From NCBI GenBank assembly GCA_965213925.1, contig OZ243927.1, positions 3,616,001 through 3,680,000 of the forward strand: 64,000 nt of DNA, written 5' to 3'. Position 1 is the stretch's first letter, and every line of letters starts with the position of its first letter. Below, in pieces: positions 14,931 through 53,783 of the stretch. A model generated the notes under the pieces. It searched no databases and was not told the DNA's origin. It saw nothing but the letters and a program-made list of their open reading frames with translations. The position numbers and the translations under genes are program-made. Origin of the DNA: Trueperaceae bacterium (lineage in GTDB: Bacteria; Deinococcota; Deinococci; Deinococcales; Trueperaceae).

Positions 14931-14945
14931 TGAATCACTTTCAGG

Positions 14946-14973: not shown

Positions 14974-15002
14974 CACCTTATAGTAAAGGGGAATGTGTAG
15001 TT

Positions 15003-15425
15003 ATGCCTTTGTGGATTGTGATTGTAATTATACTAGCGCTACTTTCACTCTTGAGTTATGGAAAGCTAGCTGCCGCATTGTTCCTTCACTTAGCGCTATT
15101 TGTTTTTAGGATTCAGACAGAGCTGTGGGATGAATATCCTACAGTAGGAGAGCCCTACGGCATACCTCGCACAATAGTTCAGCTAACTTTAATTATCTTC
15201 ATTCTTCTTTTCGAATTCACTCCTCTTAAAATTGTGATTCGAAAAAAACTAAAACTCGTTATCGGACTATTTCTGTTAGGAATTTCCCTCTACTGGGTCG
15301 GGAAACCTTATATTGTCGCTTTAGATGTTTACGCCTATACTCCTGTCACGCTGGCGCTGATAGCAGGCTTACCGCTACTTGGCGCAGTGATTTTGAGTAG
15401 AAAGAAACAAAGAGGAGAAAGATGA
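15003..15425 (+). CDS. AT-rich small multi-pass membrane protein
   Basis: 140 aa with 4-5 hydrophobic segments. Stop overlaps the next start (ATGA). Confidence 0.7.
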   Translation: MPLWIVIVIILALLSLLSYGKLAAALFLHLALFVFRIQTELWDEYPTVGEPYGIPRTIVQLTLIIFILLFEFTPLKIVIRKKLKLVIGLFLLGISLYWVGKPYIVALDVYAYTPVTLALIAGLPLLGAVILSRKKQRGER

Positions 15426-25051: not shown

Positions 25052-28000
25052 CTACTTGATGCTCACCCTGTAGCAAACCTTGCCCGCCTCGCCCGCGCCG
25101 ACCTCGCCGATGGTGACGTACACAACGCCGCCATCCAGTTTACCCGCGTCGCTATCTGCGGCAGCGCTTAGGGGCGTCACCGCGCCGTCATGCGTCCACT
25201 CGATGTCTCCATCTTGCCCTGCGCCGCCGTAAACGCCCGTTGCAAATGAGGTGAAGAAGGGGATAGGGTCGCTAAAGAGGGTTTGCGTCAAGGGCTGCGT
25301 GCCCAGGTTCTGATACGCGATGCAGTACTCGAGCACCTCTCCCGGCTTGCCCGCGCCCAGCGTCGTAAAGGCTGTTCCTTGGTCGACGTTGCGAACGCGC
25401 TTGGTCAGCTCGAGCTGACCGCCCGCCGTGACCGTCGTGACGTCCGTGACCGTCTGTACGTCCGTGACATCGTCGGGATTATTGTTATAGACAAGGCTGG
25501 CGCTCAAGGTGGCTAGGTCGATGCGTCCGCTCGACTCGCCTTGGGGAACGAAGACGCGCAGCTCCAGAGCGCACGGAGCGAGGGAGCCGTCTTCCGCTCT
25601 AGGCCACGTGCTATCAACAGTGAAACCACCAGGGAGCACGTCCACCTGTTCGTTCGTTTGGATGATGCCGTCGCAGTTCGCGTCTCTAAAAACTTGGTAG
25701 GTGTACGTTCCCGAGACGTTTAACTCAACCTCGCCTAATGTGCCTGGCGCGTAGAGGTGCGTATAGCTGACCGTGCTGCCGGGGGCGACTTGTCCGCTCC
25801 CGTCGGGGCGCAAGCTGCTGGGTCTCGCGACGCCGAAGTTGTAGGTCGCACTGTCTGTGAGGGAGAAGGTAACGCTCGAGGCGTCCGCATCACCGTAGCT
25901 GTCCGCTTGCTTAATCACGCTCGAGCCGTCATTGTAGCCCGTCGCAGGCTGCTGCGAATGCGACACGGTGATGTCGTTACCGAACGTGTCGGGAATGATG
26001 AGGGTGTAGTTGCCTGCACCGTCCGTGACGGTCGTGACGGTGTTCGCGCTGTTCGCATCGTCCGTCGCCGTGATGGTCACGCTAGACACACCATGCTCGC
26101 CGACCTCTTGCAGCGCGTTGTTCGCTACGCCGCCGCTCAAACCGTCGTCATAAAAGAGCGTGCCTGAGACGATTTTACTAAACACATTGTTGTTCTGCGC
26201 GACGCTGGTGACGAGCGCGACGGTGCCTACTTCGCGGGCGTCGCTGTCTCTCGTCGGCACGTAGCTTCCGCAACGTCCGTCCGCGTCGCCGCTCGTAGTC
26301 GGCTCCCAGCAGGCACTCGTATTTGAATCCACCCCGTTAGGCGTCAAGCTGATGGATTGACCTTTGTTCGTGTTACGCAGCGAAACGTAACTACTCGGCT
26401 CGGCATCCCACAGTTTCAAAGATGCAGGCGGAGGCGTATTGATGGGCTGCTTGTCGGTGGTATTCGAGCCGTACGCGACGTAGTCTACGATGCGTCCCTC
26501 AGCGTCGTAGAGCCACATGTCGTCGCCTTCATTGCTGAGCCTCGCGCTCCTGCCCAACCACGCCTGAAACGCCGCGGGGCTCACGTCGCGGCTCACGGTA
26601 CGCTCGCCCACCCAAATGACCGCGTATTCACCCGGCGCTAACTGCACGGCGGGGAAGGTGTAGGGAATCGCCGCGTTATCAGCGTTACCGTTGATATTGC
26701 CGTTACGCCCGTCCGCGTCGTTTTCTATAAGGTTGGCGTCAACGAGTCTCCAACCGGAGAGGTCAACCGGGTCACTACTCGAGTTGTAAAGCTCAATAAA
26801 TTCGTCGTTGTTCGCGGCGCTCGTGGTGCCGCTCTGGTCGAAGAGGAGTTCGTTGATGACGATACCGCCAGCCGCCGGGGAGACGCTATAGACGTTGAAA
26901 CTCGTTGACGCTTCGTTATTGTCCAGGTCAGGGTCGGAAGCGTCTTCACCCCGACTTACCTCCGCCGTATTCGTGACCGCGCCCGTCGTGGCTTCCTCAA
27001 CGGTTGCGGTAATGGTAAACGTCGCGGTCGCGCCGCGCTTCAAGTTGACAGTTGTATCGATATCGCCTACGCCCGAGCTTGCGCCGCAGCTGCTTGCGGC
27101 TAGAGGCTCACCAGCCTGCGCGCCTTCGGTGGTGATTTCACACGTCCAGGAAATGTCGGTTAAGCTCGGCGGAAAGGTGTCTGTCACAGCTGCGTTTACC
27201 GCGTCGACCAAGCTATCTTCGGCGTTGGTCACGGTGAGGGTGTAGCTGACCGGGCCACCCACGACGATAGACGCCGGGCTGTGCGTTTTAGTGATGGAGA
27301 GGTCCGCCTCGCGGATTTCGATGCTGGCTTGTTTGGGCTCGGCGGTGGGGTAGTAGACCCAAGTGTCGATGCCTCTATGGTTGCCGAAGTCGCCCGTAAA
27401 GCTGTGCGCGGCGGGCGGCGTGACGACGCCGTCAAGCTCCCTCTGACCATCCGTAAAGATGCTGTCGTCGAAATAAATACGTCCGGGGTCGGCGATACCC
27501 GTGGTGCTGCTACCCGCAGGCGTGTTGAGGCGCGTGATGGTGACGCCTGTCGGCGCGTCTTCGACGTCCAAAAGGGGAAAGTGGACCTCACCCGCGAAAA
27601 GCCTGACCGTGGCGGTGAAGTCGCCGCTGCCCGCGGGTACGTCGTCGCCGTTGCCGTCCTTGCCGTCCCAAAAAGCTTCGGTGGTCGTGCCGGGGACGGC
27701 TGTGCCTGCTAGGACGCGCTTGGGTAAGCCGTCCCCGAACTCGAGCGTGATGTTGTAAGCGTTCGGCACGTCGTCGGCGCTCTCGCGCGGGTTCGTAAAG
27801 AAGAAGCTCCCGCCCAAGCCTGTCCCCGCTTGGTTCTCCGTTCCGTCCCTCCCGGTAAAGGTGAAATTTTGCGGGATCGGCGGCGCTTTAGGGTCCGGGC
27901 GGTAGAGCCACGTCGAGGCGGGCGTGCCCGGTCTCGCCGCTGTTGCGGGCATACTTGGGTCGGGCTCATTCAAGAAGATTTTGTGCGTGATTTCGTTGCT

Positions 28001-28186
28001 GGGGATGTCGTCGGGGTCGTCGGGCGCGTGGAAGTCCTGTCCGGCCTGGAGTTCATCGTTATCCGTCAACTGAATCGAGCGGTAGAGCGCCTTGCCTGTC
28101 TGCGTCCCGAAAGCCCTTGCGGTTGGTAAAGAAGACGAAGCCGAAGGGCTCGATGTCTTGCTCGAGTTCGTAGCGGTAGCCGTCAA
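25052..28186 (-). CDS. C-terminal part of a large secreted DUF11 / lamin-tail / SdrD-B-like surface protein (putative tip adhesin), split by frameshift
   Basis: ADLSITKT...TYTLTVTN...VTDTFP...NTAEV (DUF11), IVINEL...EFIELYN...VDLSGWRL (LTD), SGTLFYD...TDGAGNY, truncated final DUF11. No credible own start. Confidence 0.8.
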   Translation of the reverse strand: MTATATNSSKTSSPSASSSLPTARAFGTQTGKALYRSIQLTDNDELQAGQDFHAPDDPDDIPSNEITHKIFLNEPDPSMPATAARPGTPASTWLYRPDPKAPPIPQNFTFTGRDGTENQAGTGLGGSFFFTNPRESADDVPNAYNITLEFGDGLPKRVLAGTAVPGTTTEAFWDGKDGNGDDVPAGSGDFTATVRLFAGEVHFPLLDVEDAPTGVTITRLNTPAGSSTTGIADPGRIYFDDSIFTDGQRELDGVVTPPAAHSFTGDFGNHRGIDTWVYYPTAEPKQASIEIREADLSITKTHSPASIVVGGPVSYTLTVTNAEDSLVDAVNAAVTDTFPPSLTDISWTCEITTEGAQAGEPLAASSCGASSGVGDIDTTVNLKRGATATFTITATVEEATTGAVTNTAEVSRGEDASDPDLDNNEASTSFNVYSVSPAAGGIVINELLFDQSGTTSAANNDEFIELYNSSSDPVDLSGWRLVDANLIENDADGRNGNINGNADNAAIPYTFPAVQLAPGEYAVIWVGERTVSRDVSPAAFQAWLGRSARLSNEGDDMWLYDAEGRIVDYVAYGSNTTDKQPINTPPPASLKLWDAEPSSYVSLRNTNKGQSISLTPNGVDSNTSACWEPTTSGDADGRCGSYVPTRDSDAREVGTVALVTSVAQNNNVFSKIVSGTLFYDDGLSGGVANNALQEVGEHGVSSVTITATDDANSANTVTTVTDGAGNYTLIIPDTFGNDITVSHSQQPATGYNDGSSVIKQADSYGDADASSVTFSLTDSATYNFGVARPSSLRPDGSGQVAPGSTVSYTHLYAPGTLGEVELNVSGTYTYQVFRDANCDGIIQTNEQVDVLPGGFTVDSTWPRAEDGSLAPCALELRVFVPQGESSGRIDLATLSASLVYNNNPDDVTDVQTVTDVTTVTAGGQLELTKRVRNVDQGTAFTTLGAGKPGEVLEYCIAYQNLGTQPLTQTLFSDPIPFFTSFATGVYGGAGQDGDIEWTHDGAVTPLSAAADSDAGKLDGGVVYVTIGEVGAGEAGKVCYRVSIK

Positions 28187-28940
28187 TCGTTTGTACGTAA
28201 ACGTCTAAGTTGACTCTCTGGTTACCCCCTCCGAGGTTGAGTGCGTAGTAGCGGGCGAAGACACGTCCGCTCTGCGCTACACCACCGTCAAACACAGTGA
28301 CGTCCCAGGCGGTGACCCAATTGTCGTCTGGAAGTTGGCTTTGAGTTTGATCTTGACTATCTTGCACGGTCCACTCGGCAGATACCGCGAGCGGCGGCGG
28401 GTTCGTATTGTTCGCCGTCGCGGGCTGAGTGAAGTCCACCTCGTAAATACCGTCACTCGGCACGGTGAAGGTGCAAGGACGATAGCCTGACGTATTTGCG
28501 CCGAGGGGATAGTTGGGTCCAGCAACCTCTTGGGCTCGGTTGAGGATTTTGCCCGTGTTGTCCGTGCCGGGGGTTGGGCAGTTAAAGGTATAGCCGCTCG
28601 GCCCACGCACGTTGATAGCTCCCGAACCGATGCCGTTGGCAGAGGAGCCTAGCGCTACCACTTCATCTTTGTTGGCGTAGACCCGGATGACCGTGACGCG
28701 CGGGATGCCCGCTGTAATATAGTCGCCGCTCGTGCCCGTGCGGTGCTCCAAGTAGGCACGGTTGCCGCCGTTGCGAATGAGGTCTTTACTCCCTTCGGCA
28801 TAGACGGTCTGGAAAATTAAAGACGCGAAGAGGACGAGGAGTCCAAAACACCGAAAGAAGATTTGTCGCGTAGCGAACTTGTGTATAGAATCATTCATAA
28901 GGGTGTTGCTTTCAGGTGTAGAAGTGGAGCGGCGCATCAC
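28059..28940 (-). CDS. N-terminal part of the same surface protein (signal peptide; frame shifts near 28097)
   Basis: Signal peptide ...FQTVYA|EGSKDL. Reads FFTNRKGFRDAD and continues as GKALYRS in the other frame. Confidence 0.75.
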   Translation of the reverse strand: MMRRSTSTPESNTLMNDSIHKFATRQIFFRCFGLLVLFASLIFQTVYAEGSKDLIRNGGNRAYLEHRTGTSGDYITAGIPRVTVIRVYANKDEVVALGSSANGIGSGAINVRGPSGYTFNCPTPGTDNTGKILNRAQEVAGPNYPLGANTSGYRPCTFTVPSDGIYEVDFTQPATANNTNPPPLAVSAEWTVQDSQDQTQSQLPDDNWVTAWDVTVFDGGVAQSGRVFARYYALNLGGGNQRVNLDVYVQTIDGYRYELEQDIEPFGFVFFTNRKGFRDADRQGALPLDSVDG

Positions 28941-31900
28941 TGACCCCCACCGAGCAGTTCAAAGCGTAGATGCAACCCGCTCCGCGTATCTTCGTTAAGC
29001 CCATCAAAGCCTTCAAAGGTGTAACCGAGCGCCAGCCACAGGTCGTCGATCACCCGGAGCGAACCCTCGACGCTAAAAGCAGTCGCGCTACTGCTCGCTG
29101 CAGGCTGCCACTCGTGATAGACCGAGCCGCCCACGCCCGCGTCGTCCGTAAGGTAGTAGTGCCCGCCCAACGAGGCTAAGAAGGTGCTCCTCCGGTCGTT
29201 CCACAAGGGAACGCGGTAGGCAAAACCGGGGCGCAGTTGCCACCCTTTACTTGGGTGCAATGTCGGGGCGAGTTCACCCTCTAATTCGCTGCCTTCTTCG
29301 CCGCCTGTCTCCAAAGTGTGATAGGTCGAGAGGGTGAGGTAGCGGCTCCTGAGTGCGTAAGCGGCTGTAAATTCACCTTCCGCTTCGGAGGTGAGCTGAT
29401 AGGTCGCGTCGAAGGAGAGGACTTGCTGGTGGTCTAGTTGTCCGGACGCGCCGCCCCTAAAGGTGATCTTGAAGGGGTCGTCCTGCGCGCTGTCGTAACT
29501 CACCTCAGAGGACGCAGTGGCGACGAAGTCGCCCTTGCTGTAACGCGCGCCTGCGCCCGCGCTCGCTAAGGTGTTGCCGCCATTGAAGTCTTGGTCTACG
29601 TTCGCAGAGAGATCTAAGCTCCAGGCGTCGCTGAGCGGTAAGGGCGTCTCAATGCCGAAGCGGGCGCGGTTGCCGCGTCCGTCTGCGCCGGGGAGCTGAT
29701 AGGAAACCGAGAGGTTGCCGCGTCCTAAATCTTGGACTAGGGCGACGGTGCCGATGAGTTCGCCGCCCCAGGTGTAATTGATCCCTAAATCCGCCGCTAA
29801 GTTCTCGTCAATTTGATAGCTCACGCGGAAGTCGCTGATGGGGTCGGCGTCACCGAAGGGTTGCGTGTGGGCGAGTTGGAAGTTGGCGCGACCCGCCCGG
29901 TAGCCCACGCGGGCGACGGCGCTAAAGGTCTGCGCTTCCCACAAGTAGCCCGTCCCTAAGCCGAAGGTCAAGGCGTCAACGTCGAGTTCGTACAAGGCGT
30001 TCGTCTGGTTGCGGTCGCCACGAGCGCTGTGTTCGACCACGGCGCGTTGCCCTTCGCTGAAGCTGTAAGCGACTCTCGCTTGACCTTGGAGCGCGTCCGT
30101 ATAGTTGATGTTCGCGCTGGCGTCTAGCACACCTTGCGTCAGCGTACCTGAGACACCGAGTTGAGCGCGCAGGTCCTCGTCGTAGCGGTAGGTGACGCTA
30201 AAGCTCGAGCCCGCCCCCGCATAGTCCGCGTACGCGCCAAAGTGAACGCCCTCGAGTGAAACGAGCCCCGCGCCAAACGCCCAGTCACCGGTCTGGTAGC
30301 TCACGCCAGCGCCAGCGGCGAGCGTCTCGCGGGGGCTGTCGGTGGGCGCGTAGGTGACTTCGATGTGGGTTTCGACGCCGTTCACATCTGTCGGGAAGAG
30401 CGGCTTGGAGAGCGTGAGCGCGCCCGTCACGTCGTTCAAGGTGTAGTCCTCTAGGCGCTCCAGCACGCGCTCCTGTGCGCCCGTGCGCACCGTCACAGTC
30501 TCGCTGTTGGACCTGATCGGCGCAGTGCTCAAGGTGTAGCGCCGCGTGCCGTCAGGGATGATGGCTTCGGTGAGTTGGCCCTTCGGCAGGAGGCTAGCGA
30601 AGGCTCTGCCGACGAGGTCGCCGCCCGCGAAGTCGGTGCGCACCTCGCCCTGCAACGCAGTGCCGCTCGCCACGCCGTCTAACCCGGGCACGCCTAAGCC
30701 GTCGGCGTAGTAGCCCACGCTGAAGGTATCGTCATCGTAACGCGCCGCGACGAGGTCGTCCGAGCGCAAGGCGGGCTGCGCGTCGTTGCCGCTGCCTGTC
30801 AAGGGGAAGCGGCCGGAGGGGTCGTCTTGCTCAGCGATGTCGCCGCCCGTGTCGAGTGCGCCCTGAAGCGTGCCGCTCCCTAAAGGCATCTCGGCGTAGC
30901 CGCGCGCGACGCCGTTATAGCTCAGCTCACCCCTCGTCAGGTGCACGCTCACGCTGCCCTGGTAGAGGTAGAGCGGTTCGTCCGCGCCGCCCAAGTAGAA
31001 GGTCTCCTGCGTCTCTAGGTCGTTGAAGCGCGCGGTCAAGCTCGCCTCTTGCGCGGTGAGAACGGGCTCTAAACGGACGGTCGCCACGCCGTCCTCTAAA
31101 AGAACTTGATAGCCGGATTCGCCCGGAAAGGCGTCCGCCTCGAGCGGCTCTAAGTCCGTTTGCAGCGTCACCGCGCCGAAGCCGTTGGTCACGCCGAACT
31201 CGTCTGAGGCGCGGATTTTGAACGCAACCGGGGTGACGCCGTCCGCCTCGAGCACACTCGGCACGATCTCTAAAGCCTCCGGGTTGCCCGCGCGGAAGAC
31301 CTCGACCTGATCGCGCGCGCCGCCTAGCGCGACCTCGACCACGTTGCGACCGACCTCTAAAGGCACGCCGAAGTACTCGAGCCTCAAGGTCCCGTTTTGC
31401 TCGTCGACTACGCGCTTGCCCAGGGCGTCGTTCGCCACAGGAGCGCCGTTCAGTAAAACCTCGACTTCCGTGCTGAGCGGACCTTGAATGATGACGGTCG
31501 CCGCGTCCGTTGTGCGGTAGACCGTGCCGGGAAGAGGCTCGCGGATGAGCCCGTCGCGCTCAGTAGGGGCGGCGGTGTCTCGAGCGTCCCCGACCTCTTC
31601 AAAAGGGACCTCGCCCTCTAAGAAGAGGTCGCGGTTGCCGAACTTGAGCGTCAGCGAGGGTTCGGCTAGAGCGTCTAGGCTCTCTTGGTGGGTGAGGGTA
31701 TAGCGGAGCGCGCCCGCTCGCATGTAGGGAAGCTCCCAGTAGAGGTAGGTGAGCGTTTCGCCGCCCTCGTCGACTGTGCGCGTCAGGGGGTCGGGGGTCG
31801 GGTTGCCGCCTAGTCTTGAGGAGCCCGCCTCGTACGCCGCACCTGCCGGAACACGGTGGCGCACGAGCAACCTGCCGCCGTTCGCGTCCTCGACCTCTTG

Positions 31901-33643
31901 GAGGGTTCTGCCTTCGACTTGAACGCTGAAAGGAAGCGTCACCAAAGAGGTGCGCTCGGGCGTGAGAACGGGCTTGACGTCCAAGCGCGCGCCAGCGGGG
32001 AAGCCAGCAGGCGTCTGACCGATGAAGACCGAGGCTTGGTTGTCGAGCGTACCCGTGCGCCCCGGCGTCGCGACGAACTCGAAGGTTTTGCTCTCGTTCG
32101 CCTCCAAGGTAACGGGGATGACGAGGTCGCCCTCTAAACCCAACCCCTGCTGCGGCGACTCGCGCAGTTCGAAGGAGACGGTGCGTCCCAAGGGGTTCGT
32201 CACGCGCACGGTAAAGCGCGTCTCTTGACCCTCCAAAGCCGTCTCGGTCTCGGCACGCTTTTCGACCAGGATGAGGCGTCGCGTGAGCGTGTCAGGCGCG
32301 GCCACGTCACCCACAGAAGAGGTCAGCCGCGCCGTAAACTCGCCCGTTTCCTCCGCGCCGAAGCGCACGGAGGCTTCGTAGGTGTGCGTCACAGCGTCGC
32401 CCGCGGCTAAGGTGCCTTCGAAGAGCGGTGGCTCTAAAGGCTCCAACCACTCGGGCGGCAGGTCGCTCAAGGTGTAGGAGACGCTTTCGTCGCTGTCGTG
32501 GCTCACGGTCAGAGAGACCGTAACGACTTCGCCGGGCAAGACCTCGTCTAAGTCGAGGTCTCTGGTCAACATCACTGCAGCTTGCGCTTCGGGTTCCGGC
32601 GTCGGCTCGGGTTGCGGCGTTATAGGTTCTGGCGTCACCGGCTCTGGGTCCGGCTCGGGCTCCAGTTCCGTCCCGGTAGTCTGCTCCAAGACGTAGCGCA
32701 CCTGCCCGCCTCCAAAGCCAAAGTCGACCCGCGTCCCCTCACCTCTTGCGCCGTCCGTCTCGATGTCGACGAGCCTATACTCGCCCGGCACCTCCAGCGT
32801 GACGGTGCGTTCGCTGTAGCCTGTGATGCGGACGGGAATATCTAAAGGATTGCCCGCCGTATCCACCACCTCGGCGACGACGGGCTCAGGGTAGAGCGTC
32901 TTCGTCGCGACGGTGTTGGAGTACTGATACGCGCCTTTGGGTTGACGGAGGTAGACGGTGTAGGTACCGGCCTCGTCGAACTCCCAGACCTGCCACGCCA
33001 AGTCCTCCGAGACGGGCAAGCTGCGCTCGCTGCCGTCCGCCATGACGACCTTGGCCTCTAGCTCGCCCGCGCCGTCGCCGTCGTAGAGCGCGTAACGCGC
33101 GGGCACGCCCTCGCGGGGCAGCTTGGCTTGAAAGGCTTGCGTCCACTCGCCCCCGCGCACGTCGAAGAGTTCGACGCCTTCGGCGAAGCGGAGCGAGCTG
33201 ACGCTCGGGTCGGGTGTCGTTACGCGGATGATAAAGGCGTTTTTGCCGAGCCCGGTGAAGCGGCTGCGCAGGGTGTACGCGCCCTTCTCCAAGGTGCCTT
33301 CGAAGAGCGTTTCCCACTCGTGTTGCTCCACTTCGTAGCGCCTTTCGGCAATGGTGTCGCCATCTTCTAAAACGAACGCTCCGACGAGCGGCGTATCGCC
33401 GTAGCGTTCGTCGCCCAGCTCCTCGCGCCCGTCCAAGGCGGCGCGGTAGTCGTCCGGGTCGAAGCCGGGGGAGTAGATTTCGAGCTTCACCGGGCTGTCC
33501 TGACCGAGCGAGAGCGTCATCACGACCTCTTCGATTTCCCAGCCCAAAGCGTCGCCGGGCACGATGCCTTTGACCGTGTTGTTACTCTCATCAGCGAGCG
33601 CGAAAGAAGCAAATAAGGTCAGAAATAGATATAAGTACTTCAC
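28937..33643 (-). CDS. Large secreted protein with Ig/DUF11-like domains and a large C-terminal outer-membrane beta-barrel (putative usher-like platform)
   Basis: Signal peptide, Pro/Glu linker, and a C-terminal region of several hundred residues of amphipathic Gly/Tyr-rich strands ending WLALGYTF...GLHLRFEL. Confidence 0.75.
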   Translation of the reverse strand: MKYLYLFLTLFASFALADESNNTVKGIVPGDALGWEIEEVVMTLSLGQDSPVKLEIYSPGFDPDDYRAALDGREELGDERYGDTPLVGAFVLEDGDTIAERRYEVEQHEWETLFEGTLEKGAYTLRSRFTGLGKNAFIIRVTTPDPSVSSLRFAEGVELFDVRGGEWTQAFQAKLPREGVPARYALYDGDGAGELEAKVVMADGSERSLPVSEDLAWQVWEFDEAGTYTVYLRQPKGAYQYSNTVATKTLYPEPVVAEVVDTAGNPLDIPVRITGYSERTVTLEVPGEYRLVDIETDGARGEGTRVDFGFGGGQVRYVLEQTTGTELEPEPDPEPVTPEPITPQPEPTPEPEAQAAVMLTRDLDLDEVLPGEVVTVSLTVSHDSDESVSYTLSDLPPEWLEPLEPPLFEGTLAAGDAVTHTYEASVRFGAEETGEFTARLTSSVGDVAAPDTLTRRLILVEKRAETETALEGQETRFTVRVTNPLGRTVSFELRESPQQGLGLEGDLVIPVTLEANESKTFEFVATPGRTGTLDNQASVFIGQTPAGFPAGARLDVKPVLTPERTSLVTLPFSVQVEGRTLQEVEDANGGRLLVRHRVPAGAAYEAGSSRLGGNPTPDPLTRTVDEGGETLTYLYWELPYMRAGALRYTLTHQESLDALAEPSLTLKFGNRDLFLEGEVPFEEVGDARDTAAPTERDGLIREPLPGTVYRTTDAATVIIQGPLSTEVEVLLNGAPVANDALGKRVVDEQNGTLRLEYFGVPLEVGRNVVEVALGGARDQVEVFRAGNPEALEIVPSVLEADGVTPVAFKIRASDEFGVTNGFGAVTLQTDLEPLEADAFPGESGYQVLLEDGVATVRLEPVLTAQEASLTARFNDLETQETFYLGGADEPLYLYQGSVSVHLTRGELSYNGVARGYAEMPLGSGTLQGALDTGGDIAEQDDPSGRFPLTGSGNDAQPALRSDDLVAARYDDDTFSVGYYADGLGVPGLDGVASGTALQGEVRTDFAGGDLVGRAFASLLPKGQLTEAIIPDGTRRYTLSTAPIRSNSETVTVRTGAQERVLERLEDYTLNDVTGALTLSKPLFPTDVNGVETHIEVTYAPTDSPRETLAAGAGVSYQTGDWAFGAGLVSLEGVHFGAYADYAGAGSSFSVTYRYDEDLRAQLGVSGTLTQGVLDASANINYTDALQGQARVAYSFSEGQRAVVEHSARGDRNQTNALYELDVDALTFGLGTGYLWEAQTFSAVARVGYRAGRANFQLAHTQPFGDADPISDFRVSYQIDENLAADLGINYTWGGELIGTVALVQDLGRGNLSVSYQLPGADGRGNRARFGIETPLPLSDAWSLDLSANVDQDFNGGNTLASAGAGARYSKGDFVATASSEVSYDSAQDDPFKITFRGGASGQLDHQQVLSFDATYQLTSEAEGEFTAAYALRSRYLTLSTYHTLETGGEEGSELEGELAPTLHPSKGWQLRPGFAYRVPLWNDRRSTFLASLGGHYYLTDDAGVGGSVYHEWQPAASSSATAFSVEGSLRVIDDLWLALGYTFEGFDGLNEDTRSGLHLRFELLGGGQ

Positions 33644-36456
33644 GGGTATCTCCAGCGGGCGTCAGGGTCAGTGAGACCGATAGGGGCGTTTAGGTCATAC
33701 GTCAGCGTTTGCTCGCCCTCGAACGCCTCGAAGGTGAAGCGGCGCGGAGCCGCGCCGGGGACGGGGTCGCTGACGACCAGCTCGGGGAGGGGCTCGGGGC
33801 TCGAGAGGGTTAGCACCACGCGCACCCCTTCGCCCCCGTCCGGCTGGGGCAGCGCGATGAGGCGCTTCTCCACGCTGAGCGGTCCGAAGCGCAAGGTCGT
33901 CTGCCGGTAGGCGCGAATCGTCCCCGCTGGCGCAACTAGGGGAAAGTCGCTCACCGTCAGCCCTTGTAAGACCGCGCGGTGCTGGTAGCCCTCCCTCAAC
34001 CCTTCGGGATGCGGCAGCGGCGCAAAGGGCGCGGACGCCGCGTCCAGCGTCACGGACCACGCGCCCGGCGTGAGGTCGCGGAAGGTGTAGCGCCCCTCGG
34101 CGTCGGTCAGCGTCTGCCAACCGTTCGGGAGCAGCACCCGTGCGCCGGGCAGGGGAACGTCGAGGCCGCGCTCGTACGCGCAGTTCTGATTGACGTCTAA
34201 GTAGACGCGCCCGCTCAAGAGGGCGTCGGGGCGACCTAAGACGCGCTCGTCTAACGCGACGTCCACTTGCACCTCGTCGCTCACCACGACAACGCCTGAA
34301 ACCGCACCGTCGCCGAACGTGCCGCGGGCGTACGCCGTATTGCGCAGCGGGCTGCTCGCGCCGGGCTGCACGCTGAGGGCGTACGACACGCTCACGCGGT
34401 CGCGCCCGTCCGCGCTGCCTTTAGGCTCTAAAAGGAAGTCCGGCTCATTCGTCAAGTCCCACACCAGTTCGTCGCCGCGCGCTTGAGGTTCGGTGGCACT
34501 TTCGTTCGCGCCGCTTTTCACGACCGCGCTGCCCGCCACGTACGCCGTGCGCTCAGGTGGGGTGTCGATGAGGGTCAGCTCGAGCGCCACGTCGTTCGGG
34601 TTCGAGACCGTGACCGTGTAGTGCAGCGTGTCGCCGATACGCACGACCTCTTCTTCCACCGTCTTTTCGATGTTGAGGCTCAGGAGGGGAAAGGCGTGCG
34701 TGACCTCGTTCGAAGCCTTAGGCTCGGGCAACTCCTGCGCCGCCACGCGGAAGCGGTTACGCAACACAAAGCGCGCGCTGTCAGGCACATCTTCGGGCAT
34801 CTTCACGCCGAGCGTGAACGTCACGCTTTCGCCCGCGCCCAATTGCGAAACGCGCCAGGTCACGGTGCGCGTGTCCGCGTCGTACGTGCCTCCGTCCGAC
34901 GCGGACACGAAGGTCGGCGCAGGCACGCCCAGCGCGCTCCCTCCGTCCACATTTTCGAAGCCCTGCAAGGTGTCGCTGACGCGCACGTCATTTAGGTCGA
35001 AGTCGTGGTCGTTCGTCACGCTGAGCGTGTAGGTGAGCAACTCCCCTTCTCCGACCGACCCCTCCGGCTCGGCGCGTTTGACGAGGTCCAGTTCGGGACC
35101 CGCCGCGACGACCTCGTCTACGCGGTCGTAGGTGAGGTTCGTCCTGCCCGTCTGCGAAGTCGCCGTGAGGGTGACGGTGAAAGGCTGAACGAGGTCATTC
35201 GCCGTCACGCAGAACTGAAAGTTGCGGCGTTCGCCCGCGCGCAGCTCGAGGGTGCGCGGCAACGGCTCGCCACCTACACTTCTAAGCGTGCCCGTGACGC
35301 CCGCAGGCAAGCCGCTGAAGGAGACCTCGTAACGGTCTCGAGCGGTGCTCGCGTTCTCCAGCGTGTGCGTGAAGCAGCTCGCCTGAGCGTAGACGAGCCG
35401 CCCGGTTTGGGTGTCGTCGGCGCTGCCTTCGCCACCAGGATTCGCCCGAGGGTTGCCGCCCGGTCCTAAAAAGTGGAGGTTATCTCTAGTGACGTCGAAC
35501 TCGGCGCTGGCCTCGGCGGGTCCGCCGGGTCCGGTCGCGAAGGCGCGGTTCTGACGCGCGCCCGCCGCCGCACCAAAAGTGACGCGCAGGTCGAAGCGGA
35601 GAAAGGCCGCGCCGCCGACCGCGAGCGAATCGAGCCGCAGACGAACGCCGCGCACCGCCGCTGGCTCATTTTGCGTCCAGGTCGAGCCGTCCGAGTATTC
35701 GACCGTGCCTTGCGTCGCCGCCGCCGAGCCCGCCACAAAGGTGAGCCCGTCCAAGTTAGCGAGGTCGAAGTCGTCCGTGAGGACGGGACCGATAGAAGGC
35801 TGAGAGCCGTCATTGAGCAGGCGCACTTCGAAGCGTGCGGTGTCGCCGGGGCTCAAGGTAGGGCTCGAGACCGTCTTAAAGAGTTGCAGCGCCGAACCCT
35901 GGACGATCTGCACGAGCCCGTAGTTCTCCGCGTCCTCCTCGGCTGTCCCCTGACAGGTCGCGGCGGGCGAGAGCGTTTTATCGCCCGCCGCATCCGAGGG
36001 CGTCGCGACCTCTAGGATGAGCGCGGCGTCCGCGCCGCGCTCTAAGGTGAGCGACGAGACGGCCGTCTCGCCCGCGTCCAGGCGTCCGTTGCGGTTGACG
36101 TCCTCGTAGAGCGCGGTTTCGCTCGGCGTCCAGCCGCCTGCTCCTTGCGCTACGGACAGGTCGAAGGTGAAGCGGTCGTTACCAGCGTTCGTGAGCGTAT
36201 AGGGCAGATAGGCGCGCGCGCCCGCGCCCACGCTGACGCTTTGTCCCGGCGCGGCGGGCGTCCCGTTCGGCGTCAGATTAGGGGCGCAGACGGTCCGGAC
36301 CGTGGTGTCCACCTCGTTCGAGAGGTAGGTTTCGCCGTTCGCTTGCGCGCTCGCTTGGTTGCGGATAACCGTACCCGCGGGTGTGCCTGCGCCCCACGCG
36401 GCGGCGGCGATAAGCAGTGCCAAAATGCAGTGAATTGTCCTTTTCACGTGCGTCAT
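33640..36456 (-). CDS. Secreted multi-DUF11 protein with N-terminal GTPAGTxIxNQA segment and SdrD-B-like domain (putative base subunit)
   Basis: Signal peptide from ATG 36456, three K..D..N DUF11 repeats, SGRVYLDVNQN...TDAEGRYTF. Confidence 0.8.
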   Translation of the reverse strand: MTHVKRTIHCILALLIAAAAWGAGTPAGTVIRNQASAQANGETYLSNEVDTTVRTVCAPNLTPNGTPAAPGQSVSVGAGARAYLPYTLTNAGNDRFTFDLSVAQGAGGWTPSETALYEDVNRNGRLDAGETAVSSLTLERGADAALILEVATPSDAAGDKTLSPAATCQGTAEEDAENYGLVQIVQGSALQLFKTVSSPTLSPGDTARFEVRLLNDGSQPSIGPVLTDDFDLANLDGLTFVAGSAAATQGTVEYSDGSTWTQNEPAAVRGVRLRLDSLAVGGAAFLRFDLRVTFGAAAGARQNRAFATGPGGPAEASAEFDVTRDNLHFLGPGGNPRANPGGEGSADDTQTGRLVYAQASCFTHTLENASTARDRYEVSFSGLPAGVTGTLRSVGGEPLPRTLELRAGERRNFQFCVTANDLVQPFTVTLTATSQTGRTNLTYDRVDEVVAAGPELDLVKRAEPEGSVGEGELLTYTLSVTNDHDFDLNDVRVSDTLQGFENVDGGSALGVPAPTFVSASDGGTYDADTRTVTWRVSQLGAGESVTFTLGVKMPEDVPDSARFVLRNRFRVAAQELPEPKASNEVTHAFPLLSLNIEKTVEEEVVRIGDTLHYTVTVSNPNDVALELTLIDTPPERTAYVAGSAVVKSGANESATEPQARGDELVWDLTNEPDFLLEPKGSADGRDRVSVSYALSVQPGASSPLRNTAYARGTFGDGAVSGVVVVSDEVQVDVALDERVLGRPDALLSGRVYLDVNQNCAYERGLDVPLPGARVLLPNGWQTLTDAEGRYTFRDLTPGAWSVTLDAASAPFAPLPHPEGLREGYQHRAVLQGLTVSDFPLVAPAGTIRAYRQTTLRFGPLSVEKRLIALPQPDGGEGVRVVLTLSSPEPLPELVVSDPVPGAAPRRFTFEAFEGEQTLTYDLNAPIGLTDPDARWRYP

Positions 36457-36538
36457 GCGGTGACCTCGTCCTCGCTGATGGAGGCGGAATAGAATAGGTG
36501 CGTCATAAAAATAGGTGATAGAGGGTGCGTAAGATACT

Positions 36539-36572
36539 CCCTGCCCCGGCACGAGAGCGTACCGGGGCAGGG
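36539..36572 (-). promoter_or_regulatory. Strong intra-operon hairpin without U-tract
   Basis: Minus strand CCCTGCCCCGGTACG-ctct-CGTGCCGGGGCAGGG (15 bp including one G-U), 9 nt after the 914-aa gene stop. Confidence 0.7.
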
Positions 36573-36581: not shown

Positions 36582-39326
36582 TTACTGCACGGTCACTTCG
36601 AAGGTGAGGGTGACTTCCGCGTTGGCGGGGAAGGTGTCGTCGTCATCGTTCACGACGCCGTCGCCGTCCGTATCCACGTAGACGTAGATGCTCTCGCCTG
36701 CCTCGAGGCTGAGGGGGTCGCCTGTAGTGCCGTCGCCATTTTCGTCGTCTAGGTCGTCGGTGTAGGTCACGCCGTCCACGGAGTAGAGCAGCGTAGGCGC
36801 GGACGCGAAGCCGCTCGCGCTGGCGCTCACCGAGACGAAGTCTGTAAAGGCGGGCAAGGGGTCGGAGATGACGACCTCGGTGAGGTCGGCGTTGCCCAGG
36901 TTCTTAGCGACAACGGTGTAGGTGATGGTTTCGCCGGGCGCAGCCGTGGCTTTGTTCACCGATTTGTCGAGGCTCAGGTCGCCGCTGACTACGGTGGTGC
37001 GGTCGATGACAGAAGCCTGGGCGGTGTCCGTGTCGCCGGTGACAGAATCCGGGAAGGTCGCGGTTGCGGTGAGCGTTAAGACGTTGACGTCATCAGGGTT
37101 GTAACCCTGGGGCGCACTCACCCGGACGAAGAGGGACTGCGTGTCGCCGGGCTCGAGCGTCGCAGGCAGCGTGAGGCTCGAGTCGTTGAGCCCATAGAAG
37201 GTGGTGCCGTCATACGAATAGCTGTAGTCGAAGTCCACGCCGCTCTCGCTCTCCGTAAGGCTGATCGCGGTGAGGTCCCGGTTACCCGTGTTGGTGATCG
37301 TGTGCTCGTAAGTCACCGTGCCGGGCGAGGTGATGTCGCTGTCGCGGTCCGGCGAGAAGGTGAAGGTGTTAGCCTCGTTCACCGTGACGGTGTTGAGGTT
37401 GAAGGTCACGGGCGCGATATCGGGCGAGTCGATAGTCTGGTTGACGGTCGCCGTCTGCGGCGTCGCGCCGCTCGGCACGCTCACAACTGCGAAGACGGTG
37501 ATCTCTTCGTCCGGGTCGACCGAGCCGGTGTTCGTGATCGGGGTGAGCGCGTCCAGCTCAGCCTGGGTCACGGTGCCGTCGCCGTCTGCGTCTGGGTCGG
37601 TCGCGTAGTAGACCACGCTGACGGTCGTGGGTCCGAAGGTGACCGAGCCGTCCAGGGTGAACGTATCGCTGTTGCCGCCCGTATTCACCACGTCCATCGG
37701 GAAGACGACGATGTCGCTGGAGTCAGCGTCTTCGTTGACGCTGTTCGCATTGTCCACTCGCCCGTCGGTATCGTCAGCGACGATATCGTTACCGGCATCG
37801 TCGGCGTCTGCGTCGTTACCGAACGCCACGCCCGCGCCCACGATGTCGTTAATGGTGTTCGTAGTCGGGTCTGACGTGGAGCTGTCCGTGACTGAGGTCG
37901 CAGTGACGACGACGCTATGAACCACGTCACCGGTGTCGCCGCCATCATTATCGGTTGGCGTGTCGCCAGGAATCCGCACGCGGACGATGAAGTCGAAGGT
38001 TTCGCCTGCGCCTAGCGGTCCGGTATCCGGCACGCCGTCGCCGCCGGTCGGCAGCGCCGCGCCACTTGTCGAAAGGAGCTGGACGGTCGCGTCACTCGGT
38101 AGGTTGAGGTCGTCCGTATTCACTGTGAGGTTGAAGGTGTCGGTGTCGGTGCCTGTGTTCTGGACGGTATTGGTGAAGTCTACGGTGCTACCAGCGTTAG
38201 CGCTCGCGACAGTCTGAACGTCGCTGGGATCGCCATCAGGGTCGCCGTCTGGACCGAGTGCGACGCCGATGGAGGCTTGTACGTTGGTCGTAGCGGTGTT
38301 CGTCGTGATCGTTCTCGTCGTCCCAGCGTTGTTCGTGTAGGTGACGTCCGCGTCGTTATTGATGGAACCTGGCGTAGTCTTCGTGACGGTCACGGGGATG
38401 GTGAGGGTCACGCTCTGGCGGGCGGCGACGGTAGCGAAGGTCGCGGTGATTTCGGGTGTGGCTCCGGAGGTGTCTACGCTGACACTACCGCTCGTAGGGG
38501 AGGTAGTGGCGGGGTTGCTGGTGTCGTAGGAGACGCCACTAGGCAGCGTATCGCTAATCACAATGTTCGTCGCGTCGGCTGACCCCGTGTTCTCCACGGT
38601 GATGGTGTAGGTGAGTGAGCGCGCGCCGCTGGCGGGAACGGACGTCTGACTGACCGACTTGTTCGGGACGATCGCCGCGTCTTCTACGACGTTCGTCCGG
38701 TGGTAGTTGTTGTTGTCGACTTTGGTTGCATCGCCCTGGCTCGTGGCGACCGGGGTGGCGATGACGACGTCGTCGCTCGAGTCGGTCGTGTCGACGCCTG
38801 CCGGGACGTCATAAGCCATGATGAGCTTGCGCGTGTTGGCACCGTCCGTCGTCGTGGCGGGCAGCGTGACCTCGGTCACGGCGGTGTTTTCGCCGGACTG
38901 CAGCACACCGTCACCGTTGTCGTCGATGTAAAAGGTGATGTTGGCGGGCGTGACGTGGGTGGCGTCTGTTAGCGAGGTGTCTACGGTGCTCGTCAACTGG
39001 AAGGTGTCCGTGCCGTTCCCCGTGTTGGTGAGCGTGTAGGGGTAGTACACAGGGCTGCCGGGGATGGCGTCGCGGGTCTGACCGGGCGCGGCTACGTTGC
39101 CGTCAGGCGTCACGCTCACGCCGTAGACCTGCTGCACGGTGGTGATGACCAGGTCGGAGTTGACCGACTGCGGGTTGCCCGCCGAGTCGATATAGTCGGC
39201 GGTCGCCTGGTTCTCAATCTGGGTGCCTGCGGCGGTGCCGGCGGGGGTCTGTGTCTGCGCGAACGCTTGCGGCGCGAGGACCAGAGCCGCGAAGAGCAGC
39301 GCCAAGGCGGGGCGTATAGGTATCAT
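36582..39326 (-). CDS. Secreted acidic multi-Ig/DUF11 protein (putative major fibre subunit)
   Basis: Signal peptide AFA|Q, repeated TxTNTGNxxDTFxL domains, DxDGDG loops, N-terminal donor segment and truncated C-terminal DUF11. GGAGG RBS. Confidence 0.85.
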   Translation of the reverse strand: MIPIRPALALLFAALVLAPQAFAQTQTPAGTAAGTQIENQATADYIDSAGNPQSVNSDLVITTVQQVYGVSVTPDGNVAAPGQTRDAIPGSPVYYPYTLTNTGNGTDTFQLTSTVDTSLTDATHVTPANITFYIDDNGDGVLQSGENTAVTEVTLPATTTDGANTRKLIMAYDVPAGVDTTDSSDDVVIATPVATSQGDATKVDNNNYHRTNVVEDAAIVPNKSVSQTSVPASGARSLTYTITVENTGSADATNIVISDTLPSGVSYDTSNPATTSPTSGSVSVDTSGATPEITATFATVAARQSVTLTIPVTVTKTTPGSINNDADVTYTNNAGTTRTITTNTATTNVQASIGVALGPDGDPDGDPSDVQTVASANAGSTVDFTNTVQNTGTDTDTFNLTVNTDDLNLPSDATVQLLSTSGAALPTGGDGVPDTGPLGAGETFDFIVRVRIPGDTPTDNDGGDTGDVVHSVVVTATSVTDSSTSDPTTNTINDIVGAGVAFGNDADADDAGNDIVADDTDGRVDNANSVNEDADSSDIVVFPMDVVNTGGNSDTFTLDGSVTFGPTTVSVVYYATDPDADGDGTVTQAELDALTPITNTGSVDPDEEITVFAVVSVPSGATPQTATVNQTIDSPDIAPVTFNLNTVTVNEANTFTFSPDRDSDITSPGTVTYEHTITNTGNRDLTAISLTESESGVDFDYSYSYDGTTFYGLNDSSLTLPATLEPGDTQSLFVRVSAPQGYNPDDVNVLTLTATATFPDSVTGDTDTAQASVIDRTTVVSGDLSLDKSVNKATAAPGETITYTVVAKNLGNADLTEVVISDPLPAFTDFVSVSASASGFASAPTLLYSVDGVTYTDDLDDENGDGTTGDPLSLEAGESIYVYVDTDGDGVVNDDDDTFPANAEVTLTFEVTVQ

Positions 39327-39367: not shown

Positions 39368-39895
39368 TTAGAGCACCCGCACGCGGTAGACGAACGTGCG
39401 CGCCTGACCCGGACCTAGTTCGCTGAGCAACTCCCAGCGCACCGCGTCGTACTGCGCGGGCTCGGCCGCCACCTCTTGCGCGTCGCCGTTTTCGTCCATA
39501 ACGGTGACGGTCGGCGCGGCGCTAAAGCTTTCACCTTCGTCGGCGCTAAAGGTGAGGTCGGACCCTCCTTCGCCCGTCGCCGACGCCGCGAGGTAGTGCG
39601 TGCGCTCGGGCACCGGACCCGTCGCCGCGACGCCTTCAGGGATCACCGTTTCGCTCTCGTTCTCGAGCGTGAGGTGATACTCCAGAACCTGACCCGGCTC
39701 GGCGACGTCGGTAGGGACGAGCTGTTCCTCGACTGTGCCGTCCTCTAATATCACCTCCGTCACAAGATAGCTCTCCAAGGTGACCGCCAACGGCGTTTGC
39801 GCCTGGGCGACGCCCATGGACATCCCTACGACGCCAAAAATAAGGGCGCAACAAAAGATGGGGCAGAAACCTAGAGCGGACCGGTAGTGTTGCAT
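39368..39895 (-). CDS. Small secreted single DUF11-like domain protein (putative chaperone-like subunit)
   Basis: Signal peptide AQA|Q, AEPGQVLEYHLTLEN...GPVP...VRWEL..LGPGQARTFVYRVRVL. GAGGAGG RBS. Confidence 0.8.
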   Translation of the reverse strand: MQHYRSALGFCPIFCCALIFGVVGMSMGVAQAQTPLAVTLESYLVTEVILEDGTVEEQLVPTDVAEPGQVLEYHLTLENESETVIPEGVAATGPVPERTHYLAASATGEGGSDLTFSADEGESFSAAPTVTVMDENGDAQEVAAEPAQYDAVRWELLSELGPGQARTFVYRVRVL

Positions 39896-40336: not shown

Positions 40337-40370
40337 AACAAAAAAGCGCCACGTTCCAGACGCGGCGCTT
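40337..40370 (-). terminator. Intrinsic terminator downstream of the SLH gene
   Basis: Minus strand AAGCGCCGCGT-ctgga-ACGTGGCGCTT-TTTTGTT. Confidence 0.7.
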
Positions 40371-40488: not shown

Positions 40489-41568
40489 CTAAAAACGCAG
40501 GTTGACGCCCACCGTGAACGCGGCGTCCGCGCTGCTCACGGGCGCGAAGCCGTAGCTCGTGATGAGCTGCCCGAACAAACCGACGCGCGGCGTCACGAAG
40601 TATTCCGCGCCGAAGGGGACCTCGAGCAAGAGCGCGTCGCCGTCAGGCCTTAGCGTGTAGCCGACGCCTAAGCCGCCGTAGAGGTCGAGGTCGGCGGTGA
40701 GCGCGTCTAAACGCAGGAGCGTGTCCACGCTGAAACGCAACTCGTCGTCGCCGCCGTTAAAGGTGAGGCGGCTTGCGAAGCCGACGGGACCGATGAGGTT
40801 ATCGTAGCCAGCTTGCACGCTCAAGTGGACCTCGCCCGCCGTCGAGATGACGCCGGGCGCGACGCCGAGGTAGAAGGGGTAGAGAGGTCGCTGGCTGAGG
40901 CGCACGCGGCTCACGCCGCCATTATCTTGGCTGTTATTCTGAACAACCGGACCGCCCGGTGTGCCCTCTCGAGCTGCCTGCCGCGCCGCGCTCCAAGCTG
41001 AGCGCTCACCCTGCGAACCGTCCTCTAAGGTGGCGGGGAATTCCTCCGTACCGCGCTCCACGTTGAGAACCCTCTCGAGGGCGACTAAGCGCCCCTCGAG
41101 CCTGCGCACATAGTCGAGCGACGCCGCGTCGCTCAGCGCCGCTTCCAGGCTCTCCGTGCGCTCTAAGAGGCTAGTGCGTCCTAAAGAGACCTCGTCGCGG
41201 CGCATCCGCTCCTCGAAGCGTGCGCCTGGCACCGCGCCTAAAATCTGGTCGGTGTAGTCGATGAGCCGCGCCGCGACCAAGGCGAGTTCGTAGCGCGACG
41301 CGCTCTGCTCGCCCCGGTAGTCGCCCCCCGGATAGCCCGTCAAAACGCCCAGCCGGGCGAGCGCGTCGACCGCCGGGTAAGCCCAATGAGAGGCCTGTAC
41401 GTCATTAAACTCGTCCGGGGCGGGACCTAGTGCGCCCGCTGGGAGCGGCGCTTGCGCGCTCACGCCCGTCATCAAAAGCGCGGCGAGAATCGCAGCAGAG
41501 AATACGCCGAGACGCCCAACAATGTACCTTGACTTGCGCCCATTTTCACTGCACTCACCTGCTCGCAT
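40489..41568 (-). CDS. S-layer homology (SLH) domain protein with coiled coil and small C-terminal beta-barrel
   Basis: FNDVQASHWAYPAVDALARLGVLTGYPGG..ASRYELA, C-terminal strands ending VGVNLRF. GGAGG before ATG at 41568. Confidence 0.85.
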   Translation of the reverse strand: MRAGECSENGRKSRYIVGRLGVFSAAILAALLMTGVSAQAPLPAGALGPAPDEFNDVQASHWAYPAVDALARLGVLTGYPGGDYRGEQSASRYELALVAARLIDYTDQILGAVPGARFEERMRRDEVSLGRTSLLERTESLEAALSDAASLDYVRRLEGRLVALERVLNVERGTEEFPATLEDGSQGERSAWSAARQAAREGTPGGPVVQNNSQDNGGVSRVRLSQRPLYPFYLGVAPGVISTAGEVHLSVQAGYDNLIGPVGFASRLTFNGGDDELRFSVDTLLRLDALTADLDLYGGLGVGYTLRPDGDALLLEVPFGAEYFVTPRVGLFGQLITSYGFAPVSSADAAFTVGVNLRF

Positions 41569-41711
41569 TATGACCTCCACTTCAGAGTATGCCAGTTTAA
41601 CAGGGCGATGATGTGTTGCATGGTGAAGTGTAGATGAGGAACTCTTCATGGAGCGTTGGCGCGGGGAGATCAGGGCCGCCTCCGCATAGCGGTCTCCACA
41701 CAACAATAGTT

Positions 41712-48046: not shown

Positions 48047-48076
48047 ATCCCTTCGGTATTGCTCTAGGCTAAAGTT

Positions 48077-53646: not shown

Positions 53647-53783
53647 AGGCGCAATGCAAGCGTTGTCAGGTCCACTGCAACCTTGTAAGAGGCGCTGACC
53701 CACCTAACACATCCCATCGGGCGCTAGGACAGGTGGTGAGCCAAGTGGCGCGACCGGCTTACAGAGAGTAGCAAGAAAGGATC

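Follow-up and report, generated by a model that had tools for sequence, protein, structure and literature searches.

The gene cluster and its split-domain protein

The window analysed here, a stretch of 64,000 nucleotides (nt) from contig OZ243927.1 of a Trueperaceae bacterium, carries a tight gene cluster on its minus strand, with gaps of 41, 29, -4, -4 and -128 nt between consecutive reading frames. In the order of transcription, the cluster encodes a small protein of 175 amino acids (aa), a protein of 914 aa, two further large proteins of 970 and 1568 aa, and a last gene that is read in two frames (Table 1). The 914-aa protein, which we call the shaft protein after the role that it may have in a surface fibre, is the subject of this work. 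Its C-terminal domain is split, since the last strands of the domain stand at the N-terminus of the chain, and the three residues that form an isopeptide bond in domains of this family are conserved across the split.

Table 1. Coordinates, within the window, of the shaft gene, its parts and its neighbours (ORF, open reading frame; pLDDT, predicted local distance difference test; HMM, hidden Markov model).
Feature	Position	Strand	Remarks
Gene of the putative shaft subunit	36582..39326	-	914 aa; from the ORF listing
Sec signal peptide, aa 1-23	39258..39326	-	read from the sequence; predicted helix 7-22 with low pLDDT
Donor element, aa 27-68	39123..39248	-	PAGT motif and hairpin with N39 (codon 39210-39212); corresponds to the last CLIPPER strands
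Internal complete CLIPPER domain, aa 214-352	38271..38687	-	triad K223/D259/N324; shows which strands are missing from the C-terminal domain
C-terminal acceptor domain, aa 781-914	36585..36986	-	K788 (codon 36963-36965), D822 (codon 36861-36863); stops ahead of the Asn hairpin
Small secreted acceptor-like protein	39368..39895	-	175 aa; same truncated fold, without the Lys and the Asp
Donor-bearing protein	33640..36552	-	970 aa; donor at aa 56-88 (nt 36289-36387), donor HMM 1.7e-6
Beta-barrel protein	28937..33643	-	1568 aa; own signal peptide; large C-terminal transmembrane beta-barrel, modelled for aa 880-1568 (nt 28940-31006); overlap of 4 nt with the 970-aa gene at its start
Tip-like gene	25052..28940	-	frames of 293 aa (signal peptide) and 1044 aa; C-terminal acceptor in the second ORF, aa 922-1044 (nt 25055-25423)
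Terminator-like hairpin	40344..40370	-	3' of the upstream SLH-porin gene; 11-bp stem with 7 GC pairs, then a T run; consensus match only

The shaft protein is laid out as a signal peptide, a donor hairpin, five intermediate immunoglobulin (Ig)-like domains that include one complete CLIPPER domain, and, at the C-terminus, an acceptor domain. The signal peptide would be cleaved after the AFA that ends at residue 23. A check of the sequence found neither Cys nor an LPXTG motif nor a lipobox. The protein matched Pfam DUF11 in three stretches, with 85.2 bits against a cut-off of 24.6, and TIGR01451 of NCBIfam with 90.8 bits against a cut-off of 24; DUF7507 and DUF7619 of Pfam were matched as well. 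In a survey of 2025, DUF11 (PF01345) was renamed CLIPPER and described as an Ig domain of the CnaA-like kind, in which an Asp catalyses the formation of an intramolecular isopeptide bond between Lys and Asn (PMC12617251). The bond was shown crystallographically in the CLIPPER structure 9IFR, with K715, D748 and N806 as the triad (PMC12617251). The internal domain of the shaft protein belongs to the same Pfam family and its triad K223/D259/N324 has a similar spacing.

The monomer of the shaft protein was predicted with AlphaFold2 (AF2) at a pLDDT of 88.9 and a predicted template modelling score of 0.50. The internal domain (214-350/352), compared by VIA-align 2, aligned with the 9IFR CLIPPER over 121 of 123 residues (Z 13.4, root-mean-square deviation 2.6) and with the isopeptide domains of the pilins BcpA (Z 15.1), SpaD (13.9), Mfa5 (13.8) and RrgB (in the Z range 12-15). 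To judge by its predicted structure, the internal domain has the genuine fold of a CLIPPER or of a pilin isopeptide domain. Sequence searches of the PDB with the 914-aa protein, with the family profile and with the 175-aa protein returned nothing significant, so that the tie to 9IFR rests on the Pfam assignment and on the comparison of folds. A Foldseek search with the whole 914-aa model returned generic chains of Ig domains only (ciliary proteins, complement, alpha-2-macroglobulin). TTHA1873 (7wrk), considered as a solved relative of the 175-aa protein, aligned with the internal domain at Z 12.9 and was set aside, having no link in sequence.

Two observations define the split. First, the C-terminal domain is incomplete. 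Its best DUF11 stretch, aa 783-841, covers positions 1-59 of the 114 positions of the Pfam profile, and the protein ends, with ...VTLTFEVTVQ, right after the strand that precedes the Asn hairpin in the internal domain. All three residues of the triad are found together in the internal domain, whereas the C-terminal domain holds K788 and D822 only. Because it ends ahead of the Asn strands, we regard it as a split variant of CLIPPER and not as a standard member. The first-pass annotation of the window, made from the sequence alone, had noted that the C-terminal repeat keeps the Lys and the Asp and lacks the last segment, and our data agree with it. It had placed the domain at 36582-36977; the domain itself stands, whereas these positions lie three bases too low and begin on the stop codon, aa 783-914 corresponding to 36585-36980. 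The same domain contains an insert of acidic character with many Asp and Gly residues, DDLDDENGDG...DTDGDGVVNDDDD (window 36700-36790, aa ~846-898); this insert resembles calcium-binding loops, has a pLDDT of 52 and is gapped in most relatives.

Second, the missing strands are present at the other end of the chain. Residues 37-65, for which the ORF translation returned the reading given earlier for nt 39132-39218, IENQATADYIDSAGNPQSVNSDLVITTVQ, align without gaps to residues 322-350 of the internal domain, with 9 identities in 29 and a BLOSUM62 score of 48. The gapless alignment and its identities had been reported before; they proved robust, since the second-best window of 29 residues within aa 67-914 scores 24, and a score of 48 was reached by 0 of 100,000 shuffles at 322-350 and by 0 of 3,000 anywhere in the 914-aa protein. 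A donor HMM built from 66 relatives also matched the internal hairpin 321-350, with an independent E-value of 0.015. In the AF2 monomer, the strands 36-39, 42-46, 52-56 and 60-64 repeat the pattern of the strands 320-324, 327-331, 337-341 and 345-350.

Conservation of the split and the partner genes

A homologue search with the 914-aa protein found 433 sequences. The 120 that were listed came from Trueperaceae, Deinococcus, Meiothermus, Riflebacteria, Polaromonas, Glaciimonas, Ramlibacter, Opitutales and Angelobacter, and mostly had a length of ~860-950 aa, with three shorter sequences and one of 1017 aa. Our alignment was made from the 117 listed sequences of 850 aa or more, the three shorter fragments being left out. 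Their overall identity to the query is ~30-50%, and within the family the N-terminal donor element is the best-conserved part of the protein. I37, N39 and A41 are invariant (117/117) and Q40, A43, Y45, D47, S57, V60, T62 and V64 are conserved at 95% or more. On the acceptor side, K788 and D822 are each conserved at 99%, and the internal triad at 95% (K223), 99% (D259) and 100% (N324). The C-termini of all 117 relatives fall 3-7 residues past the last strand, counted from the column of V911, and therefore none of them has room for a C-terminal hairpin of its own.

We also scanned genomes, one per species, for the locus and obtained 79 loci. They span Deinococcota, Krumholzibacteriota, Latescibacterota, Betaproteobacteria, Verrucomicrobiota, Armatimonadota, Acidobacteriota, Desulfuromonadales, Gemmatimonadota, Nitrospirota, Bipolaricaulota and others. 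Among the species with the operon are the cultured Meiothermus taiwanensis, Deinococcus caeni and Polaromonas sp. JS666. The shaft proteins of these loci carry the Lys in 72/72, the Asp in 71/72 and the donor Asn in 73/73 cases, and 68 of 69 complete shaft-like ORFs have both the donor and the C-terminal acceptor. The exception is a Nitrospirota protein of 4,139 aa (locus L035, 121-12540) whose donor and shaft-like core are not followed by an acceptor at the C-terminus; shaft and anchor may be fused in it.

Among the loci listed, the genes recur in one order: a small acceptor-like gene, the shaft of ~900 aa, a donor protein of ~1,800-2,140 aa, and a protein that ends in an acceptor and has no donor. 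In these loci, the small gene lies directly upstream of the shaft wherever it is present. In Deinococcota the third gene is divided into homologues of the 970-aa and 1568-aa proteins, whereas outside this phylum single-sequence matches to the two parts were found in one polypeptide, the N-terminal portion of the 970-aa protein being joined there to the barrel protein. The fourth is a single protein of 1,000-1,400 aa or longer in the relatives.

HMMs of the donor and of the acceptor, built from the shaft family, were run across the proteins of the window. Both matched the shaft protein (donor E 4.5e-18, C-terminal acceptor 1.8e-27). The 175-aa protein matched the acceptor HMM at aa 60-174 (3.3e-9), up to position 128 of the 129 profile positions, and did not match the donor HMM. 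The 970-aa protein, for which the Met at aa 33 is the probable true start, gave no match to the acceptor HMM at its C-terminus; the stretch SVEKRL...VVSDPVP there, taken by eye for a further acceptor, was dropped for this reason. Neither HMM matched the 1568-aa protein. The 1044-aa ORF of the tip-like gene matched the acceptor over the full profile at its extreme C-terminus (1.6e-16), and again no donor was matched.

The acceptors differ in their chemistry according to the kind of protein that carries them. Complete tip acceptors of other loci have the Lys in 18/18 and the Asp in 18/18 cases, a count made after setting aside 13 of 31 tip-like ORFs, which were truncated at the end of the locus, had less than 700 aa or were pieces of shafts with a frameshift. 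The small acceptor-like proteins have the Lys in 3/68 and the Asp in 14/68 cases, and P825, a residue of the fold, in 68/68. Because the small proteins keep P825 and have lost the Lys and the Asp, and the tips keep both, these two residues appear to be retained for chemistry and not for folding. The anchor-like donors have the Asn in 27/33 cases; the other six, mostly from Krumholzibacteriota, have Ser (five) or Ala (one) in its place. An additional, orphan copy of the small acceptor-like gene is found in the genome of our organism far from the operon, beside a large multi-pass membrane protein (locus L083, 1498-2004; contig C1, ~459.9-460.4 kb). It encodes 168 aa with a signal peptide, has a Gly at the position of the Asp and ends with ..FVYRVVVQ.

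The C-terminal 689 aa of the 1568-aa protein were predicted by AF2 as ~40 long antiparallel strands at a pLDDT of 79. In the VIA-align 2 structure search, the top 26 rows were all transmembrane beta-barrels, some lower rows being other structures; among the matches were VDAC (Z 11.6), FhaC (11.3), the PapC pore (10.8) and BrkA (10.6). Look-alikes of the protein in the Atlas carry the name 'outer membrane protein' (0.94). The two frames of the tip-like gene overlap by 128 nt (28059-28186), the 293-aa ORF ending at 28059 and the signal-less 1044-aa ORF starting at 28186, which looks like a frameshift, either real or due to an assembly error.

Directly upstream of the operon lies a gene (40489-41706, minus strand) for an SLH-domain protein (PF00395, 3e-8) with an apparent porin-like C-terminal region, weakly matching por_somb. 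The terminator-like hairpin at its 3' side would make the five-gene cluster a transcription unit of its own. Elsewhere in the window, a c-di-GMP-II riboswitch aptamer (RF03169) was detected on the plus strand at 53679-53768, with 52.2 bits against a gathering score of 40, and two stretches, 14001-16000 and 48001-50000, have a low G+C fraction of 0.475 and 0.417, against ~0.60 elsewhere.

Proposed joining of the subunits and its alternatives

The two halves of the split domain were also predicted to fit together. A complex of residues 775-914, which hold the C-terminal domain, and residues 24-220 from the N-terminus was modelled with a 66-row alignment for each partner, in three runs and with three controls. 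The complex scored 0.83, 0.82 and 0.84, against 0.00 for the best control, and thereby reached a mark that 116 of 157 solved complexes attained, compared with 2 of 215 mismatched pairs. The pLDDT of the partners was at least 90, and at least 92% of the contacts were common to the runs. Donor residues 37-46 were predicted to pair antiparallel to 816-824 (819:44, 818:45, 820:43, 822:41), and residues 60-67 to lie against 792-797 and 913-914; overall, residues 29-31, 35, 37-48 and 60-67 of the donor touched the acceptor, and the strand of K788 (782-790) was within the interface. The pLDDT of the acceptor was 83-86 with the hairpin, compared to 64-71 with unrelated partners. From this register, N39 and D822 would face the same side of the sheet, and the alternation of the conserved residues I37, N39, A41, A43 and Y45 on one strand, V818, I820 and D822 on the next and L784, L786 and K788 on the third would fit a buried triad.

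We propose, with a probability of about 0.7, that a surface fibre has the 914-aa protein as its shaft subunit, and that this fibre is built on a split CLIPPER (DUF11, CnaA-like) domain, joined head to tail and locked by isopeptide bonds. As far as the models go, the subunits probably plug into each other head to tail; the triad that is retained across the split suggests that an intermolecular K788-N39 isopeptide bond may form. After Sec export, the mature N-terminus would present the last CLIPPER strands with N39. The hairpin of subunit n+1 would insert into the C-terminal domain of subunit n and rebuild a complete domain, and the rod of tandem domains would carry on from chain to chain. K788 and N39 would then react autocatalytically with the assistance of D822, and the resulting intermolecular isopeptide bond would make the joint irreversible. 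The acceptor-only tip protein would cap the chain at its distal end, whereas the 970-aa donor would plug into the last shaft subunit and, together with the 1568-aa barrel protein, root the fibre in the outer membrane. The small acceptor without Lys and Asp may hold the donor hairpins reversibly and non-covalently in the periplasm until assembly, as a decoy or chaperone opposite in its action to PapD. That Asn39 of one subunit completes the C-terminal domain of the next had been suggested in the first-pass annotation, and the conservation, the docking prediction and the operon partners all lend it support.

Several points weigh against this proposal. The tool used for the complex carries a caution of its own, namely that the two halves of a split domain may pass through their likeness to solved folds, and its prediction is blind to the difference between joining within a chain and between chains. 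The single-chain AF2 model is confident both for the hairpin (pLDDT 92-94) and for the C-terminal domain (>90), and it probably docks the hairpin onto the C-terminal domain of the same chain. Since the tip gene is read in two frames, the system is possibly not intact in the source genome. Since 6 of the 33 anchor donors have Ser or Ala instead of Asn, not every joint can be covalent, and the joint at the anchor would not always be so. Finally, the model does not account for the path of folded subunits across the outer membrane.

An unlikely alternative, though the next in likelihood after the proposal itself, is a non-covalent joint: donor-strand complementation alone would hold the subunits together head to tail, in the way of chaperone-usher pili or TasA, and Lys, Asp and Asn would do no more than stabilise the core by hydrogen bonds. 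The anchor donors without Asn would be in line with this, as would the small paralogue, which is predicted to accept the hairpin without K or D. A published observation points in the same direction: for BsaA of Clostridium perfringens, the N35A variant is reported to give SDS (sodium dodecyl sulfate)-stable oligomers still, until they are heated (PMC11580942). Some DUF11 domains are also described as lacking the bond (PMC12617251). Against it stand the invariance of N39 in the 117 relatives and the 99% retention of K788 and of D822, in addition to the fact that the loss of K and D is confined to the paralogue that should not lock. Moreover, the same triad is bonded in the solved CLIPPER structure 9IFR (PMC12617251).

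Closure within the chain would be the other way to complete the domain. The hairpin would fold onto the C-terminal domain of its own chain, giving a circularly permuted, discontinuous CLIPPER domain and a covalently closed, monomeric adhesin. The confident single-chain model of hairpin and C-terminal domain is compatible with it, and so are two published precedents: discontinuous isopeptide domains that enclose other domains exist, for example a GBS104-like_Ig domain made up of residues 137-211 and 587-717 (PMC12617251), and self-complemented 'closed' monomers were modelled for TafA (PMC11821415). Among the loci listed, however, the operon has acceptor-only tips with the Lys and the Asp in every case, and donor-only anchors; neither can close on itself. 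As they can be completed only by another chain, they argue for joining between chains. The hairpin also leads straight into domain 1 (..TTVQ-QVYGVSVTPDG) in the same way as the internal domain leads into the next one (..TNVQ-ASIGVALGPDG), so that a polymer would simply prolong the rod, whereas a covalent bond inside one chain would stop any assembly. We therefore find closure within the chain improbable as the final state; it may occur as a precursor state.

Hardly credible, to our mind, is an ordinary monomeric fibrillar adhesin, in which the N-terminal likeness would be the decayed, functionless remnant of a repeat and the C-terminal domain simply truncated: tandem-repeat adhesins with DUF11 are common (PMC12617251) and the whole-model Foldseek matches were generic Ig chains, but no other part of this family, with its overall identity of ~30-50%, is as well conserved as the N-terminal element, the split is universal in the family, and the complex prediction passes its controls.

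Comparison with known fibres and ligation systems

Profile searches of the source genome, which is 96.9% complete, gave no match to sortase (PF04203) or to the usher (PF00577), the control search for the latter being positive in E. coli. PapD-like chaperones (PF00345) had no match in the genome, nor among the five operon proteins scanned. No LPxTG motif was found in the six ORFs of the cluster, and none of the operon proteins has within its first 45 residues a lipobox, the mark of the lipoprotein precursors of type V pili (Bacteroidia). A TasA-type family did not appear in the Pfam results for the five operon proteins, SipW not having been searched for.

Sortase-assembled pili of Gram-positive bacteria resemble the shaft protein in that their Lys-Asn pilin domains, those of BcpA, SpaD and RrgB (Z 12-15), share the fold class of its internal domain. 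They differ in their assembly, since the genome has no sortase and the cluster proteins no LPXTG motif. In sortase pili, an enzyme makes the bond between subunits, from the carboxyl of a Thr to a Lys. Spontaneous religation of a split isopeptide domain is familiar from the man-made pairs SpyTag/SpyCatcher and isopeptag/pilin-C. The resemblance to SpyTag/SpyCatcher, drawn in the first-pass annotation, holds as an analogy and fails as to the class of the domain: SpyCatcher derives from a CnaB2 domain, whereas the domain here is a CnaA-like CLIPPER.

Chaperone-usher pili, such as type 1 and P pili, share with the present system a donor-less tip subunit with a groove and a barrel in the outer membrane at the base. 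Their criterion, an incomplete Ig fold that a neighbour completes with its N-terminal extension, finds its predicted counterpart here in the docking (0.83 versus 0.00) and in the conserved split. Their subunits, however, are not covalently linked and their chaperone donates a strand, whereas the 175-aa protein looks like an acceptor. The shaft is a multi-domain rod of 914 aa with a hairpin as donor, and the usher and PapD families are absent from the genome. Nor is the 1568-aa barrel closer to the PapC pore than to other barrels (Z 10.8 compared to 11.6 for VDAC).

The described CLIPPER triads lie within one domain of one chain; the C-terminal copy in the shaft is cut before the Asn strands, which now stand at the N-terminus. 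In the available portions of the CLIPPER survey, intermolecular bonds are mentioned for other systems only (PMC12617251). The closest published mechanism is that of BsaA, in which donor-strand exchange is followed by an N35-K74 bond with E56 as the catalyst, termed 'exchange and lock', and mutants lose oligomers (PMC11580942). There, too, an Asn of an N-terminal donor reacts with the Lys of an acceptor with the help of an acidic residue, as we propose for the shaft. BsaA nevertheless has an unrelated fold and belongs to another family, comes from a Gram-positive host and depends on the signal peptidase SipW. It has no outer-membrane barrel and no set of tip, anchor and decoy, and it donates a single strand, unlike the repeat-domain hairpin of the shaft.

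In archaeal threads (Saci_0406), donor-strand complementation runs head to tail and an intermolecular isopeptide bond was proposed (PMC9715654). The reported partners of this bond are Asn57 and the alpha-amino group of Asp24, and the subunits that it ties are n and n+2 (PMC9715654), unlike the Lys-Asn bond considered here; the threads have an archaeal host, no Pfam domain and no outer membrane. Neither BsaA nor the threads share the fold of the shaft, the outer-membrane barrel or the decoy protein. Two other candidates for a related system were rejected. The DUF11 'grappling hook' of Litorilinea is a single-chain fibre of 6,596 aa, which rules it out as the same system. The haloarchaeal tafi do use donor strands, but the domain named in their description is DUF1102 and not DUF11, and the accessible part of their description mentions no isopeptide bond (PMC11821415).

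In the published literature, searched without supplementary files, we found no description of a pilus based on a split DUF11/CLIPPER domain. We suggest tentatively, the balance of the evidence falling slightly short of it, that the loci represent a pilus class of double-membraned bacteria from more than ten phyla. It would be free of sortase and of the classical pair of chaperone and usher, and would combine a natural 'click' ligation, a decoy acting as an inverse chaperone, and a giant barrel as the root and possibly the exit of the fibre.

If our proposal is true, it would add a further route of building pili beside the chaperone-usher, type IV, type V, curli and sortase routes, and autocatalytic locking by intermolecular isopeptide bonds would reach beyond one family of matrix proteins in Gram-positive bacteria to a widespread system in bacteria with an outer membrane. 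The split domain would be a natural counterpart of ligation of the SpyTag/SpyCatcher type, and its divergent pairs of donor and acceptor could be mined as orthogonal tools for protein coupling. It would also become testable how irreversible polymerisation is avoided in the periplasm and how such fibres cross the outer membrane.

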